Of a DNA stretch of 64,000 nt, positions 11,447 through 42,836 are shown in pieces; positions within the stretch are counted from its first letter, which is position 1, and each line of letters starts with the position of its first letter. The notes beneath the pieces were generated by a model. The model worked only from the letters and a program-made list of their open reading frames with translations. It ran no database searches and was not told the DNA's origin. The position numbers and the translations under genes were made by a program. The DNA comes from a virus (lineage: Duplodnaviria; Heunggongvirae; Uroviricota; Caudoviricetes), in IMG/VR virus record IMGVR_UViG_3300020048_000021, positions 105,848 to 169,847 of that record; one strand, 5' to 3'.

Positions 11447-11521
11447 GCTCGGTTAGCTGAAATGGATTAGCAGCGTCTTGATAAGGCGCAGATATTGGAT
11501 CGTTACCAATACCGAGTACCA
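11447..11521 (+). tRNA. tRNA-Ile (anticodon GAU)
   Basis: hand-folded cloverleaf: acceptor GCTCGGT/ACCGAGT, D GCTG/TAGC, anticodon loop TTGATAA, T-loop ATCGTTA, CCA encoded. Confidence 0.7.
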
Positions 11522-12206: not shown

Positions 12207-12213
12207 GGTCTGA

Positions 12214-12293
12214 TGCGGAGTAGGGGAGTCTGGTCGTCCCCGCTAGTCTCATAAGCTAGAGATCGTGTGGTTCGAATCCCACTTCCGCTTCCA
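12214..12293 (+). tRNA. tRNA with CAU anticodon (Met or Ile2), atypical T-arm
   Basis: acceptor TGCGGAG, U8-A9, D GGGG/CCCC with 11-nt loop, anticodon stem CTAGT/GCTAG loop CTCATAA; T-arm only 4 bp with 8-nt loop; 1-72 mismatch. Confidence 0.5.
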
Positions 12294-18451: not shown

Positions 18452-18522
18452 GAAGCATTCGTATAGCCGGAAGTACGCCGTCAATTGAGACGGAAACGTG
18501 GGTTCGACTCCTACATGCTTGT
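18452..18522 (+). pseudogene. aberrant tRNA-like element (6-nt or 8-nt anticodon loop, 1-72 G-G mismatch, no CCA)
   Basis: acceptor GAAGCAT/ATGCTTG, D GTAT/GTAC with AGCCGGAA loop, T-arm GTGGG-TTCGACT-CCTAC; anticodon region CCGTC-AATTGA-GACGG; flanked by long-range pairing AGGCTGATGACG (18375) with CGTCAGCCT (18528). Confidence 0.45.
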
Positions 18523-19641: not shown

Positions 19642-21033
19642 TTGGCTAATTTAATTTTATGGAACTGTCTCAATGTAGATCATGCATCGATTCGACCTGC
19701 TGGGCCACATCAATTGGCTCATTGGTTACAATTGAACGGTTATACCGTTAAAGTTATAGATTTTTGTCACTCAATGAGTACCGATAATCTGGTCAATATT
19801 ACATTAAAGCATATTGATCTTAATACAATCGGAATAGGAGTTAGTACTACATTTTGGAATAATACCAATAATATTGATCCTAAATCTTTATCAGTAACAA
19901 TGGAACCAGAATGGGTAATAAATGCTAGAGATAGATTAAGTCATTTAAATGTAAAATGGATATTGGGCGGAGCTAATAGTACAAATGTATTCAGTTACGA
20001 TTGGAAAATATTACATGGTCACGCAGAAGATTCATTATTACAATTTATGGATGAACATTCGTCTAAAATTAGCGTAAGACCTCAATTTGATATTAAAAAT
20101 CTAGAAAATTGTTTTTACGATGATTTAGCTATACAAAGTACAGAAGTATTACCAATAGAATTAAGTAGAGGATGTCAGTTCAAATGTAAATTTTGTCGAT
20201 ATCCATTATTGGGAAAGAAAAAGAATACATATATACGAAATTATAAACTTATAGAAACTGAGTTTGTTGAAAATTATGAACGTTATGGAATCACAAAGTA
20301 TTTTTTCTTAGATGATACCGTAAATGAAAGTATTGAAAAGATAGAGGCGTTGGCCGAAATGGCACAACGATTGCCATTCAAACTTAATTGGTTTGGATAT
20401 AATAGATTAGACTTGATAGGCACACGACCATCTACTATTGAGTTATTGAAACATAGTGGATTAAAAAGTGCTTTTTTTGGAATAGAAAGCTTTCATTCTA
20501 AGGCCAGCAAGATTGTGGGCAAAGGATGGAATGGAGTTCATGGTAAAGAATTTTTATTAGAGTTACGTCAGAAATGGGGTAATGACATAAGTTTTCATCT
20601 GGCGTTTATAGCTGGACTTACTGGCGAAACATCTGAAAATTTAGATGATACTCAACGTTGGTGTATAGATAATAATATTGCTAGTTGGAGATTTTCTGGA
20701 TTGCATATTAGCAAAAGTGAAAATCTTGTTTGGAAAAGTGAATTCGATTTAAATCACGGATTATATGGGTATAAATTTCCATACGATGATAAACCAGAAT
20801 TCTGGACTAATAGTTTATGGACTTCTCAGTCTGCGGCTAGTAAAGCAATTCAATTACTAAAAGATTCACAGAAACATATTAAGCCAGCAGTTTGGTTATT
20901 GGGCGAGTTATCGTCATTGGGATATGATTTAGATCATTTAATGAGTAAGTACAAACATGAACTTGACTGGGACGATATTAAAAATCGTAATAAGATATTT
21001 GTTGAAAAATACGTAACAACTCAATTGAAATAA
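19642..21033 (+). CDS. radical SAM enzyme with N-terminal B12-binding-like domain
   Basis: CxxxCxxC motif in GCQFKCKFCRY; N-terminal Rossmann-like segment typical of class B radical SAM; TTG start with RBS AAGGAACAAAGTAATTG. Confidence 0.65.
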   Translation: MANLILWNCLNVDHASIRPAGPHQLAHWLQLNGYTVKVIDFCHSMSTDNLVNITLKHIDLNTIGIGVSTTFWNNTNNIDPKSLSVTMEPEWVINARDRLSHLNVKWILGGANSTNVFSYDWKILHGHAEDSLLQFMDEHSSKISVRPQFDIKNLENCFYDDLAIQSTEVLPIELSRGCQFKCKFCRYPLLGKKKNTYIRNYKLIETEFVENYERYGITKYFFLDDTVNESIEKIEALAEMAQRLPFKLNWFGYNRLDLIGTRPSTIELLKHSGLKSAFFGIESFHSKASKIVGKGWNGVHGKEFLLELRQKWGNDISFHLAFIAGLTGETSENLDDTQRWCIDNNIASWRFSGLHISKSENLVWKSEFDLNHGLYGYKFPYDDKPEFWTNSLWTSQSAASKAIQLLKDSQKHIKPAVWLLGELSSLGYDLDHLMSKYKHELDWDDIKNRNKIFVEKYVTTQLK

Positions 21034-22209: not shown

Positions 22210-22295
22210 GGAGTAGAAGCATCAATGGTGATGCAGTGGACTGTAAATCCGCCGCCCTTCGGGCACGACTGGTTCGATCCCAGTATACTCCACCA
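22210..22295 (+). tRNA. tRNA-Tyr (GUA), type II
   Basis: acceptor GGAGTAG/ATACTCC (one mismatch), D GCAT/ATGC, anticodon loop CTGTAAA, variable arm GCCC-TTCG-GGGC, T-arm ACTGG-TTCGATC-CCAGT, CCA. Confidence 0.7.
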
Positions 22296-22390: not shown

Positions 22391-22485
22391 GCTAGATAGC
22401 ACTGGTGTGCGGCTGAATCTTATAAGTTCGGGAGAGTGGTCAGATGGGCTGCAACGGATAGGTTCGAATCCTATATCTAGTACCA
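22391..22485 (+). tRNA. 95-nt tRNA-like gene with Sec-like architecture, anticodon apparently UAU
   Basis: 8-bp acceptor GCTAGATA/TATCTAGT, D-stem GCAC/GTGC with 4-nt loop, GGCTGAA motif, 6-bp anticodon stem CTGAAT/GTTCGG loop CTTATAA, about 26-nt variable region, 4-bp T-stem TAGG/CCTA loop TTCGAAT, CCA. Confidence 0.45.
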
Positions 22486-23124: not shown

Positions 23125-23673
23125 ATGAATACTTGGATTACATCTGATCTTCATTTTAGTCACGCGAACATTATGAAATTTTGCCCAGAATCACGGGCAC
23201 GATTTGTGTATGACGGCGTAGACTATATGAACGAAACGATGATTAAAGAATGGAATGAACTGATTGACCCAAATGACTTGACGTATATACTGGGCGATTT
23301 TGCGTTTTGTAACGCTCAAAAAGCAACCGAGATTGCTCGTAGACTAAATGGCACTAAGATTTTGGTAGAAGGAAATCATGATCGTAAATCACTAAACGAT
23401 CCTACATTTCGTAAATGTTTTAAAGAAGTTCACAAATATCTAGATATCAATTATAATGGTACTAAGATTGTGATGCTTCATTATCCAATTGCCGAATGGG
23501 ATCAGATGCATCGTGGAAGTGTTCATTTTCACGGTCATCTTCACGGTAACGTTAGCGGAATGGAAAAGTATCGTTGTCGTGATATGGGAATGGATGCAAC
23601 GGGTCGTATTGCCATTAGCATGGAAGAAGCTATTACAGACGCATTGACTGGTGAAATTAAAAGTCATCACTAG
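23125..23673 (+). CDS. calcineurin-like metallophosphoesterase
   Basis: N-terminal DLHFSH, GDFAF, GNHD motifs of the metallophosphatase fold. Confidence 0.65.
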   Translation: MNTWITSDLHFSHANIMKFCPESRARFVYDGVDYMNETMIKEWNELIDPNDLTYILGDFAFCNAQKATEIARRLNGTKILVEGNHDRKSLNDPTFRKCFKEVHKYLDINYNGTKIVMLHYPIAEWDQMHRGSVHFHGHLHGNVSGMEKYRCRDMGMDATGRIAISMEEAITDALTGEIKSHH

Positions 23674-23728: not shown

Positions 23729-24106
23729 ATGGGCTTTGTAATTAAACTTGATAAACTAGAATGGATAGAATCCATTAGAGCGGCTATTCGTGCAGAAGGG
23801 TGGACTGGTACTTCTGGTTGTAAAGAGTGGGCCAAAAAGACCTATGATGCCACTCTGAATTACAATTGCTATGGTAATATGTCTAGCATTAAGTTTAAGA
23901 CAGAAGAGATATGTCAGAAATTTGCTAAAGTATATGAAATTCCATACTTGACCAATGTACAGAAATTACAGGAAGATCACATGTACAAATTGTTGATGAG
24001 TGTGACTGAACTGTTAGAACGACCATCCTCGAATAGTATTGAGATTATTAAATCTGATATACTCAGTGCCATTAACAATATTAAAGCAACCTACGGAGTT
24101 AAATAA
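23729..24106 (+). CDS. hypothetical protein
   Basis: 125 aa ORF. Confidence 0.4.
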   Translation: MGFVIKLDKLEWIESIRAAIRAEGWTGTSGCKEWAKKTYDATLNYNCYGNMSSIKFKTEEICQKFAKVYEIPYLTNVQKLQEDHMYKLLMSVTELLERPSSNSIEIIKSDILSAINNIKATYGVK

Positions 24107-25014
24107 TGAATTCGTTAGAATTAAAAACCTTCGTTGAAGAAAATCCAAAATTGGTTTCTAAGAAGGTAGCAGGAGATGGAATCTACGTACTGAAATACAA
24201 ACGTCGAGTATTCTATGACAAATTGTGGAATGAATTTCTAGAAGAATGTCGTGGTACTATTGTCGATGAAGATTTTAATGTCGTTGCTCGTCCTTTTACA
24301 AAGATATATAATTTTCGAATCGAAGATAAGTCTCCTGTTTTGTCAGATGATACACTTGTTACCGCTTATCGCAAGGTAAATGGTTTCATGGTCGCAGTGA
24401 CTTGGTACAATGATGACATCTTGGTGTCTACCACTGGGTCTACTGATTCGCCCTATGTTGATATGGCACGTGAAATGATGGTGAAAGAACAGCCATGGGT
24501 CAACTGGGTATCTGCTATCAGCATGAATCAGGGTTACACCATGATGTTTGAGTGTGTACATCCCGACGATCCACACATTATCCCAGAACAAACAGGAATG
24601 TATTTTCTGGGTTGGCGTGAGAACACATGGGACTCTAAGGTCGAGGGATTTGGCGGAACAATTCAAGATCACTGGCAAAAGTATGCGGTGAGTTTCTTGC
24701 GTTGTAAGTGCGCTGAATCTTTTCAGACTTCTATCGATGAACTGGTAGAAATGTCTAAGACTGTTAAGCACGAGGGTTTCGTTTTCTATACAAAAGATGA
24801 AGTGTCGGCAAAGATCAAGTCGCCGTACTATTTGATCAAGAAGTTTGTAGCTCGTAACCCACGTACTGACAAGTTGATGAGAGCAGATATCAAACAATCA
24901 ATAGATGAAGAATACTATCCATTGATTGATCATATTCAAGCAAACATTGTTGAGTATACTGCCCTAGACGAGCAAGCTCGATTGTCATGGGTTCGTGAAT
25001 TTTTGGAGCGATAG
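24106..25014 (+). CDS. rnlA: RNA ligase 1 (T4 gp63 / RnlA-like)
   Basis: segment ECRGTIVDEDFNVVARPFTKIYNF aligns with T4 Rnl1 [28 protein letters not shown]; adjacent to other RNA-repair genes. Confidence 0.65.
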   Translation: MNSLELKTFVEENPKLVSKKVAGDGIYVLKYKRRVFYDKLWNEFLEECRGTIVDEDFNVVARPFTKIYNFRIEDKSPVLSDDTLVTAYRKVNGFMVAVTWYNDDILVSTTGSTDSPYVDMAREMMVKEQPWVNWVSAISMNQGYTMMFECVHPDDPHIIPEQTGMYFLGWRENTWDSKVEGFGGTIQDHWQKYAVSFLRCKCAESFQTSIDELVEMSKTVKHEGFVFYTKDEVSAKIKSPYYLIKKFVARNPRTDKLMRADIKQSIDEEYYPLIDHIQANIVEYTALDEQARLSWVREFLER

Positions 25015-30833: not shown

Positions 30834-30909
30834 GCTCCTCTAGCTCATCGGTTAGAGCAGGAAACTCATAATTTCTTGGTACCGTGTTCGATTCACGGGG
30901 GGAGTACCA
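30834..30909 (+). tRNA. tRNA with CAU anticodon (Met or Ile2)
   Basis: acceptor GCTCCTC/GGGGAGT, D GCTC/GAGC, anticodon stem GGAAA/TTTCT loop CTCATAA, T-arm CCGTG-TTCGATT-CACGG, CCA. Confidence 0.7.
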
Positions 30910-31457: not shown

Positions 31458-31952
31458 ATGTATAAGAAACAAATCAACACAGATGACGTAGTAAAATTTC
31501 TAGAAACTTGCGATGACACGACTAAAGTGTACATCGGTTGTGACTCAGAACGATTTCAAATAAATTCAGTCTGGTATGCAGACTATATTACCGCGGTTGT
31601 GGTACATATTAATGGAAATCAAGGATGTAAGATTTTTGGCGCAGTTGATCGTGAACGAGATTATGAACAAAATGTCAACAAGCCTCGTCATCGTCTTATG
31701 TCGGAAGTTTATCGTGTGGCGGATTTGTATCTTAGATTAAGTGAAGTTGTAGCTCACGATATTGAAGTTCATTTGGACTTAAATCCAAGTGAAATCCATA
31801 ATAGTTCTATTGTGGTTAATGAGGCAGTTGGTTATATTAAGGGAATGTGTGGAGTGGTTCCTTTCGTTAAACCAGAGGCTTTTGCTGCTAGTTATGCTGC
31901 TGATCGATACAAGTCTTTGACAGAATATCAGCGTCATATGACTGGAACGTAA
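31458..31952 (+). CDS. hypothetical protein
   Basis: 164 aa ORF. Confidence 0.45.
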   Translation: MYKKQINTDDVVKFLETCDDTTKVYIGCDSERFQINSVWYADYITAVVVHINGNQGCKIFGAVDRERDYEQNVNKPRHRLMSEVYRVADLYLRLSEVVAHDIEVHLDLNPSEIHNSSIVVNEAVGYIKGMCGVVPFVKPEAFAASYAADRYKSLTEYQRHMTGT

Positions 31953-41804: not shown

Positions 41805-42836
41805 ATGAGAAAGATGGCAACAATTCGTCGTATTGACGAACTAAACCCTATTGAGGGTGCTGATAAAATTGAAGTGGCTACCGTTGGTGGATGGAAAGTC
41901 GTGTGTCAGAAAGGATTGTATGTAGTTGGCGATCTAGCGGTATATTGTGAGATTGATAGTTTCATTCCCACTGCCATTGCTCCATTCCTGACTCGCGACG
42001 GGCATTACCCCAAGACGTATGAAGGTATTGAAGGTGAACGTCTTCGCACTATCAAGTTGCGTGGGCAAATCTCTCAAGGATTGTTACTGCCCTTGAGTGT
42101 TCTTGCTGTTAATACTTCTTCAGGTGATTATCTTGGTGACTGGGAACAGTTTGAGAATGAAGATGTAAGTGAGAATCTTGGCATCGTCAAATACGAACCG
42201 CCAATGTCAGCACAACTTGCTGGTGTCGCTCGTGGTAATTTCCCAAGTCAGATTCCAAAGACTGATCAAGAACGTTGTCAGAATCTGAAGCGTGAGATTT
42301 CTCAAGCTGGTGATACTACGTTCGAGGTTACTGAAAAGTTAGACGGTTCATCAATGACTGTATATCTGATTGATGGTGTCTTTGGTGTATGTTCACGCAA
42401 TCTTGATCTGAAAGAAAGTGAAGGAAATACTTTTTGGAAAGTTGCTCGTGAGTTGGATCTTGAAACTAAGATGCGGACTATGGGTGATAACTTTGCTATT
42501 CAAGGTGAACTAATTGGCGAAGGAATTCAAAAGAATATCTACGAAATCAAAGGTCATAAATTCATGGTATTCGATATCTATGATATTGTCGTGGGTGATT
42601 ATATGATTCCAGACATGGTTCGTACTATCTGCAAAATGCAGAACTTGAACCACTGTCCTGTTATTCTGCCTCACGGTTCAGTAAATCATACTATCGATGA
42701 ACTGCTTGAATTAGCAGAAGGAAAGTCTGAGCTGAATGTCAAGACTGAGCGTGAAGGTTTAGTATTCAAGGCAGTGAATGGTAGTTTTACATTCAAGGCT
42801 ATCTCAAATAAATTCTTATTAAAGCACGGGGATTAA
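41805..42836 (+). CDS. ATP-dependent RNA ligase (KxDG nucleotidyltransferase superfamily, Rnl2-like)
   Basis: motif I EKLDGSSMTVY; N-terminal OB-like region; RBS AAGGAAATATTATG. Confidence 0.55.
   Translation: MRKMATIRRIDELNPIEGADKIEVATVGGWKVVCQKGLYVVGDLAVYCEIDSFIPTAIAPFLTRDGHYPKTYEGIEGERLRTIKLRGQISQGLLLPLSVLAVNTSSGDYLGDWEQFENEDVSENLGIVKYEPPMSAQLAGVARGNFPSQIPKTDQERCQNLKREISQAGDTTFEVTEKLDGSSMTVYLIDGVFGVCSRNLDLKESEGNTFWKVARELDLETKMRTMGDNFAIQGELIGEGIQKNIYEIKGHKFMVFDIYDIVVGDYMIPDMVRTICKMQNLNHCPVILPHGSVNHTIDELLELAEGKSELNVKTEREGLVFKAVNGSFTFKAISNKFLLKHGD

Follow-up and report, generated by a model that had tools for sequence, protein, structure and literature searches.

How is a phage tRNA gene to be read when its anticodon, UAU, fits the isoleucine codon AUA and its body resembles that of selenocysteine tRNA (tRNA-Sec)? 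This question is raised by a gene at 22391-22485 (+ strand) of a 64,000-nucleotide stretch of viral DNA, positions 105,848 to 169,847 of the IMG/VR record IMGVR_UViG_3300020048_000021, which in its full length is called the window here. The usual bacterial decoder of AUA is a tRNA with a CAU anticodon which is modified with lysidine by TilS. We consider it likely, from the comparison of this gene with its homologues, that the UAU tRNA would decode AUA as isoleucine independently of lysidine.

The sequence of the gene is GCUAGAUAGCACUGGUGUGCGGCUGAAUCUUAUAAGUUCGGGAGAGUGGUCAGAUGGGCUGCAACGGAUAGGUUCGAAUCCUAUAUCUAGUACCA. ARAGORN called it tRNA-Ile(tat), 95 nt long, with an encoded CCA end and the anticodon UAU at 22421-22423 in the loop CUUAUAA. 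No Rfam family was reached by this gene at the gathering thresholds, whereas 28 other tRNAs of the window were matched. In a permissive Rfam search, the top family was tRNA-Sec (27.5 bits, E = 0.0023), which ranked above the general tRNA model and stayed below its own gathering score of 47 bits. In two homologues tRNA-Sec was again the best Rfam model (33.9 and 32.6 bits), likewise under the gathering score.

An exact search with a 22-mer from the anticodon arm matched two IMG/VR contigs. In contig 3300032271_000427, the tRNA and its flanks are identical to the window; in the other contig (L001), the flanks and the gene order differ and the tRNA deviates from that of the window only by a compensatory swap of A-U to U-A in the D stem. 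Three degenerate pattern scans of viral contigs provided 62, 108 and 92 matching stretches, which overlapped, and one pattern scan of species-representative bacterial genomes provided 23. The family is carried by more than 120 uncultivated viral contigs and by 21 contigs of bacterial metagenome-assembled genomes (MAGs). The covariance model R1, built from 38 distinct members and run on 100 sources, gave 77.7-110.9 bits for family members, 105.9 bits for the window gene and at most 37 bits for ordinary tRNAs, and it found one family copy per locus. With this model, 21 of the 23 bacterial stretches scored as members. Fourteen are on Terriglobia/Acidobacteriota MAG contigs; the others belong to Alphaproteobacteria (Rhodobacteraceae, Hyphomicrobiales, Acetobacteraceae, Stellaceae and Rhodospirillaceae) and to one contig labelled only Pseudomonadota. 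A Sphingopyxis stretch (L144) matched the pattern by chance and is no tRNA, and one more bacterial stretch gave no member-level score. The family is sharply defined, real and conserved, and the gene appears functional by every comparative criterion.

The family is absent from deposited isolates at blastn sensitivity. When the 1.6-kb region was compared with 50,697 GenBank phage records by blastn and megablast, only the neighbouring ordinary tRNAs were matched. The 95-nt gene, used both as the window sequence and as the sequence of a typical family member (L051 type), had no match in these records, and the L051-type sequence had none in the PLSDB plasmids. One locus (L099, 5940-6043) contains just the 3' half of a family tRNA, starting with the 3' strand of the anticodon stem and fused right after the CCA of another tRNA (42 bits); this half-copy may be the scar of a recombination event, or the gene may be split. 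Long-armed UAU tRNAs with a normal D arm were also seen in viral contigs (L017, 11306-11393; L052, 4986-5069; L006, 4396-4483; L023, 5872-5974), the last of them with two T-arm-like hairpins, and long-armed UAU tRNAs may therefore have more than one origin in phages.

On the contigs with neighbours found by ARAGORN, the Terriglobia and Alphaproteobacteria members mostly lie inside dense arrays, in which 20-37 tRNA genes are packed into a few kb (MAG contigs L133-L155). The order in the Terriglobia arrays is conserved (Trp-Cys-Ile(UAU)-Arg-Arg-Ile(GAU)-Asn-Lys and on). These arrays resemble the horizontally spreading tRNA arrays described in two papers (Tran et al. 2016, PMC4758250; Santamaria-Gomez et al. 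2021, PMC8421152) and are probably located on mobile elements. Their lone CAU tRNA looks initiator-like, and irregular D arms occur in the arrays.

The fold of the UAU tRNA was derived from an alignment of 38 distinct family members; the extended pair counts refer to 92 distinct members with the indexing anchored on the 3' end. The parts of the gene are the following:

22391-22485, + strand: the complete tRNA gene of 95 nt with the anticodon UAU and an encoded CCA (ARAGORN; 105.9 bits with R1; identical copy in an IMG/VR contig).

22391-22397, + strand: 5' strand of the acceptor stem, GCUAGAU, pairing with 22475-22481 and starting with the wobble pair G1.U72 (all seven pairs in 92 of 92 members; changes on both sides in six of seven).

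22398, + strand: A8, linker between the acceptor stem and the D stem, not an eighth pair (A in 84 and G in 8 of 92; able to pair with position 65 in 33 of 92).

22399-22410, + strand: D arm, a 4-bp stem GCAC/GUGC with the tetraloop UGGU (fully paired, with covariation at the third pair: AU 30, UA 6, GC 2).

22411-22412, + strand: GG linker from the D stem to the anticodon stem (nearly invariant in the family alignment).

22413-22431, + strand: anticodon arm, a 6-bp stem CUGAAU/GUUCGG and the loop CUUAUAA with UAU at 22421-22423, A37 and A38 (five pairs supported by covariation).

22432-22457, + strand: variable region, consisting of the linker GAGA, a 6-bp arm GUGGUC/GGCUGC (22436-22441 with 22447-22452), the loop AGAUG and the 3' linker AACGG (supported by covariation).

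22458-22474, + strand: T arm, a 5-bp stem AUAGG/CCUAU with the loop UUCGAAU (outermost pair 49:65 in 38 of 38, four pair types).

22475-22485, + strand: 3' strand of the acceptor stem, AUCUAGU, followed by A73 at 22482 and CCA at 22483-22485 (A73 in 92, CCA in 91 and U72 in 88 of 92).

The 7/5 model paired 98.0% of the cells of the 38-sequence alignment. Compensatory changes were found in all five helices. Both partners had changed in 20 of the 28 pairs, and none of 500 shuffles reached the observed values. The fifth T-stem pair 49:65 forms in all 38 members (CG 13, AU 12, UA 12, GC 1), whereas the candidate eighth acceptor pair 8:65 forms in only 12. Among the 92 members, 49:65 pairs in 87, the remaining five failing the check for a contiguous 5-bp T stem under fixed indexing, and a one-base T-stem insertion is visible in some aligned members. 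The pair 8:65 is possible in 33 of the 92, every time alongside a formed 49:65. The fold is thus 7/5 in the acceptor and T stems (7 + 5 = 12 bp), with one linker base and a class II variable arm, and these pair counts rule out an 8/4 model. ARAGORN also drew the gene as 7/5; its register of the variable arm (46:65 etc.) fails in homologues such as L003. In the minimum-free-energy fold of the single sequence, the acceptor stem has 8 bp and is stacked on a D stem of 4 bp, the anticodon stem and the variable arm have 6 bp each, and the T stem has 4 bp. This fold is uninformative because its energy is no better than that of shuffled sequences (z = -0.54), and the window sequence can be drawn as 8/4 because A8, A49 and U65 happen to be present.

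The details of the family agree between its members to a high degree. The pair 1:72 is mostly G.U and at times A-U or G-C. The D tetraloop occurs in the variants AGGU, UGGA and UGGUU, and the flanking A8 and G21 never pair, so that the D stem stays at 4 bp. The extra pair of the anticodon stem, of the 26:44 type, covaries in the 38 members (CG 31, GU 4, GC 3). The variable region of 26 nt exceeds the limit of class II tRNAs (a variable stem-loop of more than 10 nt); its arm is 99% paired with five of six pairs changed on both sides in the 38 members, its loop has the consensus RGAYN, and the G-A of the loop and the ACGG of the linker are invariant. The T loop is either UUCGAAU or AUCGUAA, and the joint switch of positions 54 and 58 indicates a genuine T-loop fold.

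Much of the original prediction, which had been made from the letters of this gene alone, stands. ARAGORN placed the 95-nt gene at exactly 22391-22485, and the UAU anticodon in the loop CUUAUAA, the 4-bp D stem (GCAC/GUGC) with the 4-nt UGGU loop, the long variable region and the 6-bp anticodon stem, which includes two G.U pairs in this sequence, were all recognized correctly. An 8-bp acceptor stem and a 4-bp T stem had also been proposed and had to be replaced by 7/5 in view of the family covariation and the ARAGORN drawing. With them falls the tRNA-Sec-type geometry, given the 7/5 fold, A73 in place of G73 and the sub-threshold tRNA-Sec score. The 8/4 fold was a legitimate drawing of one sequence, which that sequence alone did not establish. 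A 'GGCUGAA' motif assigned to the D region consists of the GG linker and the 5' strand of the anticodon stem and is conserved in GG only. Folding by software as an ordinary type II tRNA with a different anticodon, or as a pseudogene, had been named as the outcome that would speak against the prediction: ARAGORN did give a 7/5 tRNA with a long variable arm, but the anticodon remained UAU and the gene is not a pseudogene.

The anticodon is fixed in the family. The searches were repeated with the anticodon arm left free because the first scan had imposed CUUAUAA. With a pattern for the variable arm, 64 of 65 distinct sequences had UAU in a 7-nt loop, the exception being the L099 half-copy, and with a pattern for the D arm, UAU was found in 57 of 57. 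All family members have A37, and position 38 is A in 84 of 92.

The meaning of AUA in this phage was derived from its proteins. The G+C content of the window is 36.9%, and AUA accounts for 277 of 16,413 codons in 88 crude open reading frames (ORFs), i.e. 23% of the isoleucine codons. The radical-SAM gene at 19642-21033 contains 16 AUA codons and was aligned with 119 homologues of 46-79% identity. Its AUA columns contain 63.8% I, 10.6% L, 10.2% V and 1.5% S, and they resemble the columns of AUU and AUC (I 41%, V 11%, L 9%), unlike those of serine (S 34%) or leucine codons (L 59%), although the homologous proteins were predicted with the standard code and some of their 'I' residues may be AUA codons, which takes something from the argument for isoleucine. 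In a codon alignment with the other family-carrying loci, the AUA codons of the window are matched with AUA (39), AUU (35), hydrophobic codons and AUC (12), and no serine codon is among the top twelve partners. AUA is isoleucine in this phage, since its columns are isoleucine-like and it exchanges with AUU and AUC, and a serine-inserting AUA reader would consequently harm the phage's own proteins. Of the two functions originally suggested for the tRNA, the decoding of AUA in an AT-rich phage is in agreement with these data, which make it the predicted role, whereas a 'reprogrammed' tRNA finds no support, the phage AUA codons lying at positions conserved as Ile/Val/Leu and swapping with AUU and AUC.

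Isoleucine identity resides mainly in the discriminator and the anticodon loop (PMC9976931). The same paper documents bacteria in which CAU and UAU tRNA-Ile are redundant; in lactic acid bacteria, a UAU tRNA-Ile occurs beside the CAU type and is accepted by IleRS. A73 is found in 92 of 92 family members, and the window gene shows the combination of discriminator, UAU and A37/A38 that is typical of UAU-type tRNA-Ile. The comparison with other tRNAs of the same loci points in the same direction. Co-resident tRNA-Ile(GAU) has A73 in 51 of 51 cases and U72 in 34 of 51 (A-U 17, G.U 17), and the UAU family has U72 in 46 of 51. In contrast to this R1-U72 end of the UAU family, G1-C72 is present in 90 of 92 co-resident tRNA-Ser, which mostly have G73, in all tRNA-Tyr and in most tRNA-Leu; neither the anticodon nor the acceptor end of the family corresponds to Leu, Ser or Tyr identity. 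The three isoleucine candidates of the window, the UAU tRNA and the two listed below, all share G1.U72, C2-G71, U3-A70 and A73:

11447-11521, + strand: tRNA-Ile(GAU), which shares G1.U72, C2-G71, U3-A70 and A73 with the UAU tRNA.

30834-30909, + strand: CAU tRNA similar to E. coli tRNA-Ile2 (ileX), lysidine type, a second candidate AUA decoder (D and anticodon arms, C4-G69, C5-G68).

Several tRNA isotypes of these phages (Ile, Lys, Val, some Leu and Met) often start with the wobble pair G1.U72, which is unusual at the acceptor top of bacterial tRNAs.

We propose that the UAU tRNA would be an elongator tRNA that reads AUA through its genomically encoded UAU anticodon, for which no lysidine modification by TilS would be required. 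The IleRS of the host would recognize A35, U36, A37 (probably as t6A) and A38, possibly U34, and the discriminator A73, and the tRNA is probably charged via these elements of the anticodon loop and the acceptor end. What the sequences show directly is the fold, the conservation, the fixed UAU and A73 and the meaning of AUA as isoleucine; IleRS charging, ribosomal use, the modification of U34 and the purpose of the unusual scaffold are inferred. The CAU tRNA at 30834-30909 was assigned by the nearest of three E. coli reference tRNAs, ileX in this case. By this crude classification, which can serve as a rough indication only, 21 of 33 viral loci carry an ileX-like CAU tRNA and none of 12 bacterial arrays does, the sole CAU tRNA of the arrays appearing to be the initiator. 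The UAU tRNA would thus be the only AUA reader of the arrays and a second AUA decoder in many phages. In the phage studied here, it would supplement the Ile2-like CAU tRNA, so that the abundant AUA codons could be translated whatever the decoding capacity of the host. The scaffold would spread on mobile elements, i.e. in large uncultivated phages and in the dense tRNA arrays of Terriglobia and Alphaproteobacteria.

In this function the gene would most resemble the UAU-type tRNA-Ile of a few bacteria, with which it has in common the reading of AUA without lysidine, A37, A38, A73 and the possible coexistence with a CAU tRNA-Ile2. The bacterial UAU-type tRNA-Ile is a class I cloverleaf; its length is about 76 nt, its D loop is normal and its variable loop has 4-5 nt. 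The UAU tRNA differs by its 95 nt, its class II arm, its D tetraloop and its lone linker base. A compact core, in which one base separates the acceptor stem from the D stem, the D loop is small and the anticodon stem has 6 bp, is also known from tRNA-Pyl and from mammalian mitochondrial tRNA-Ser(UCN). Their variable loops are very short and their anticodons and identities are different, whereas the UAU tRNA has a long arm, a D loop of the G18G19 type and a canonical T loop.

The closest published description is that of the allo-tRNAs. Mukai et al. (2017, Nucleic Acids Res 45:2776, PMC5389517) gave this name to tRNA-Sec-like false positives with 8/4 or 9/3 branches, in which one scaffold carries anticodons for 35 codons and of which the active ones insert serine at non-serine codons. 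UAU was the most abundant of the anticodon groups and was termed structurally "slightly different"; allo-tRNA-UAU was linked to acidobacteria, soil metagenomes, polycistrons of irregular tRNAs, and toxin-antitoxin and transposon loci, and the authors suggested that it may not serve translation. The UAU tRNA shares with allo-tRNA-UAU the anticodon, the similarity to the tRNA-Sec model, the long variable arm, the tetraloop D arm and the lengthened anticodon stem. The origin is similar as well (Acidobacteria, Proteobacteria, phages and polycistrons of irregular tRNAs there, the 14 Terriglobia/Acidobacteriota MAG contigs here). Unlike the allo-tRNAs, which are 8/4 or 9/3, mostly have G73 or U73 and carry many anticodons, the family described here is 7/5 with an invariant A73 and UAU only, and unlike allo-tRNA-UAU in the non-translational interpretation of Mukai et al., it occurs in complete tRNA sets. 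As judged by the published description, the family probably overlaps the allo-tRNA-UAU group. By definition, the UAU tRNA is neither a tRNA-Sec nor an 8/4 or 9/3 allo-tRNA. In a term search, no long-armed UAU tRNA was found in the tRNA-array paper PMC8421152, the review PMC7609411 and Mukai 2020 (PMC7590224).

Several points weigh against the decoding of AUA as isoleucine by the UAU tRNA. The minor determinants of E. coli tRNA-Ile (C4-G69, U12-A23, C29-G41 and G16/D20/D21) are absent or not conserved: the window gene has A4-U69, A12-U23, A29-U41 and a D loop of just UGGU, and these positions vary across the family. The 5' acceptor strand is, on average, nearer to that of co-resident tRNA-Ser (3.35 of 7) than to that of tRNA-Ile(GAU) (2.36 of 7). 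The main determinant for SerRS is a long variable arm, and U34, if unmodified, could read AUG too. The loop-closing pair of the anticodon stem, equivalent to 31:39, is unpaired in 19 of 38 members. Moreover, six allo-tRNA-UAU species were found to be inactive in E. coli after their anticodon had been changed to CUA (Mukai et al. 2017, PMC5389517). If the anticodon governs identity, the change itself would abolish charging, but the negative result would also suit an RNA outside translation.

The explanation that survives best beside isoleucine decoding, improbable in our view yet deserving some weight, is that of a non-translational tRNA-like RNA, which might act as a decoy or sponge for a tRNA nuclease or another defence of the host, or as a regulatory or mobile-element RNA. 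Apart from the non-canonical core with its often mismatched 31:39, it is favoured by the conservation of the RGAYN loop and of ACGG beyond the needs of a helix, which suggests a specific binding partner, and by the genes for a phosphoesterase and an Rnl1-type ligase just downstream, which indicate that tRNA damage and repair matter to the phage. We know of no anticodon nuclease that targets tRNA-Ile(UAU), and the anticodon, A37, A73, CCA, the G18G19-type D loop and the T loop have been kept as in a working adaptor. The gene also sits in tRNA clusters for 20 amino acids and in arrays in which it is the sole AUA reader. The inactivity of allo-tRNA-UAU as amber suppressors and its linkage to toxin-antitoxin and transposon loci (PMC5389517) would suit an RNA outside translation, but the CUA result does not discriminate, isoleucine identity being destroyed by the conversion.

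It is considerably less probable still that the gene encodes a serine acceptor of the 8/4 allo-tRNA type which reads AUA as serine, i.e. a missense or recoding tRNA. The long variable arm, tRNA-Sec as the top Rfam match (27.5-33.9 bits), the 5' acceptor strand and the possibility of drawing the window gene alone as 8/4 would fit such a tRNA, and the active allo-tRNAs do put serine at non-serine codons (PMC5389517). The eighth acceptor pair, however, forms in 33 of 92 members against at least 87 of 92 for the fifth T pair, the invariant A73 contrasts with the G73/U73 of serine identity and with the G1-C72 and mostly G73 of co-resident tRNA-Ser, and the scaffold does not occur with other anticodons as that of the allo-tRNAs does. 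In addition, the AUA columns with 1.5% serine and the swaps of AUA with AUU and AUC mean that insertion of serine would harm the phage proteins. As a test of identity, the similarity of the acceptor stem was discarded: it leans weakly toward tRNA-Ser, and the pair 1:72 and position 73 are more diagnostic. It suggests that the UAU tRNA may have descended from a Ser/Sec-like class II tRNA which later gained A73, U72 and UAU. A selenocysteine-type tRNA with an acquired sense anticodon, or a degenerate pseudogene of one, is effectively refuted, since the likeness to tRNA-Sec (RF01852, the top-scoring Rfam family) in the UGGU D tetraloop, the 6-bp anticodon stem, the long variable arm and the sub-threshold match is opposed by 27.5 instead of 47 bits and by UAU, A73, a 12-bp 7/5 branch and a D stem of 4 bp where tRNA-Sec has UCA, G73, a 13-bp branch (bacterial 8/5, or archaeal and eukaryotic 9/4) and 6 bp, none of which the UAU tRNA possesses, and a pseudogene by more than 90 distinct, fully paired and covarying homologues.

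The window belongs to an uncultivated T4-like myovirus, whose RIIA shares no more than 46% identity with the RIIA proteins of cultured phages. NAMPT, a radical-SAM enzyme, glycosyltransferases and a protein resembling the baseplate wedge are also encoded. ARAGORN found 32 tRNA genes between 11.4 and 31.2 kb, all on the + strand, and the tRNAs of the window cover all 20 amino acids. Some of them are irregular. A CAU tRNA at 12213-12292 (80 nt in the ARAGORN call) lacks an encoded CCA, its D arm is unusually long, and its anticodon lies at position 38; Rfam scored it 45.3 bits (12214-12290), and its nearest reference was the initiator. Between two tRNA-Glu(UUC) genes, ARAGORN reported a 'tRNA-???' with a 2-nt anticodon in a 6-nt loop (18452-18522), possibly a tRNA-Glu copy that has degenerated, or else an irregular tRNA. 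A class II tRNA-Tyr(GUA) with CCA at 22210-22295 was missed by ARAGORN (Rfam, 34.5 bits). Its identity to the tRNA-Tyr of Limnohabitans phage DC31 is 88%, which may hint at a freshwater betaproteobacterial host range.

Inside the tRNA cluster lie the genes for the phosphoesterase (phrog_547, 23125-23673) and the T4 Rnl1-type RNA ligase (24106-25014), and another ligase, which is Rnl2-like and has a PHA02142 OB domain, is encoded at 41805-42836. The phosphoesterase and the two ligases look like a tRNA-repair toolkit, and phosphoesterase homologues recur in other phage loci with the UAU family. When contigs encoding this phosphoesterase were looked up, a single one of 1.2 kb was obtained. Just past the last tRNA, an RNaseH-like protein of the YkuK type (PF04308) is encoded at 31458-31952; with 48 tblastn hits in other UAU-family loci, it was the most frequent co-occurring protein. 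A Gram-negative porin (Porin_4, E = 4e-44) encoded by the phage at 48019-49173 suggests a Gram-negative host and a possible modification of the host outer membrane. No SelA, SelB or SelD was detected among 20 ORFs of the window in a Pfam scan, which was not exhaustive.

To our knowledge, bacterial class II tRNAs are confined to Leu, Ser, Tyr and Sec. Structurally, the UAU tRNA is a new form of a tRNA whose kind is known, and it has probably been met before in the literature, where it was interpreted differently. More tentatively, and with somewhat more against the idea than for it, the family might represent the first natural class II isoleucine tRNA: a mobile, TilS-independent AUA decoder of phages and arrays, in which the invariant D tetraloop, RGAYN and ACGG would form a recognition module for a partner (a U34-modifying enzyme, a contact of the synthetase or protection from a nuclease), while allo-tRNA-UAU would have been misread as an 8/4 serine-type or non-translational RNA. 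The choice between 7/5 and 8/4 also calls for caution in deducing an odd stem geometry from one sequence. If the decoding of AUA as isoleucine by the UAU tRNA is true, the family would constitute a new structural class of isoleucine tRNA which is conserved, mobile, long-armed and dedicated to UAU, and its scaffold may be a possible chassis for orthogonal tRNAs. Phages and tRNA arrays could then supply AUA decoding independently of the TilS of their host.

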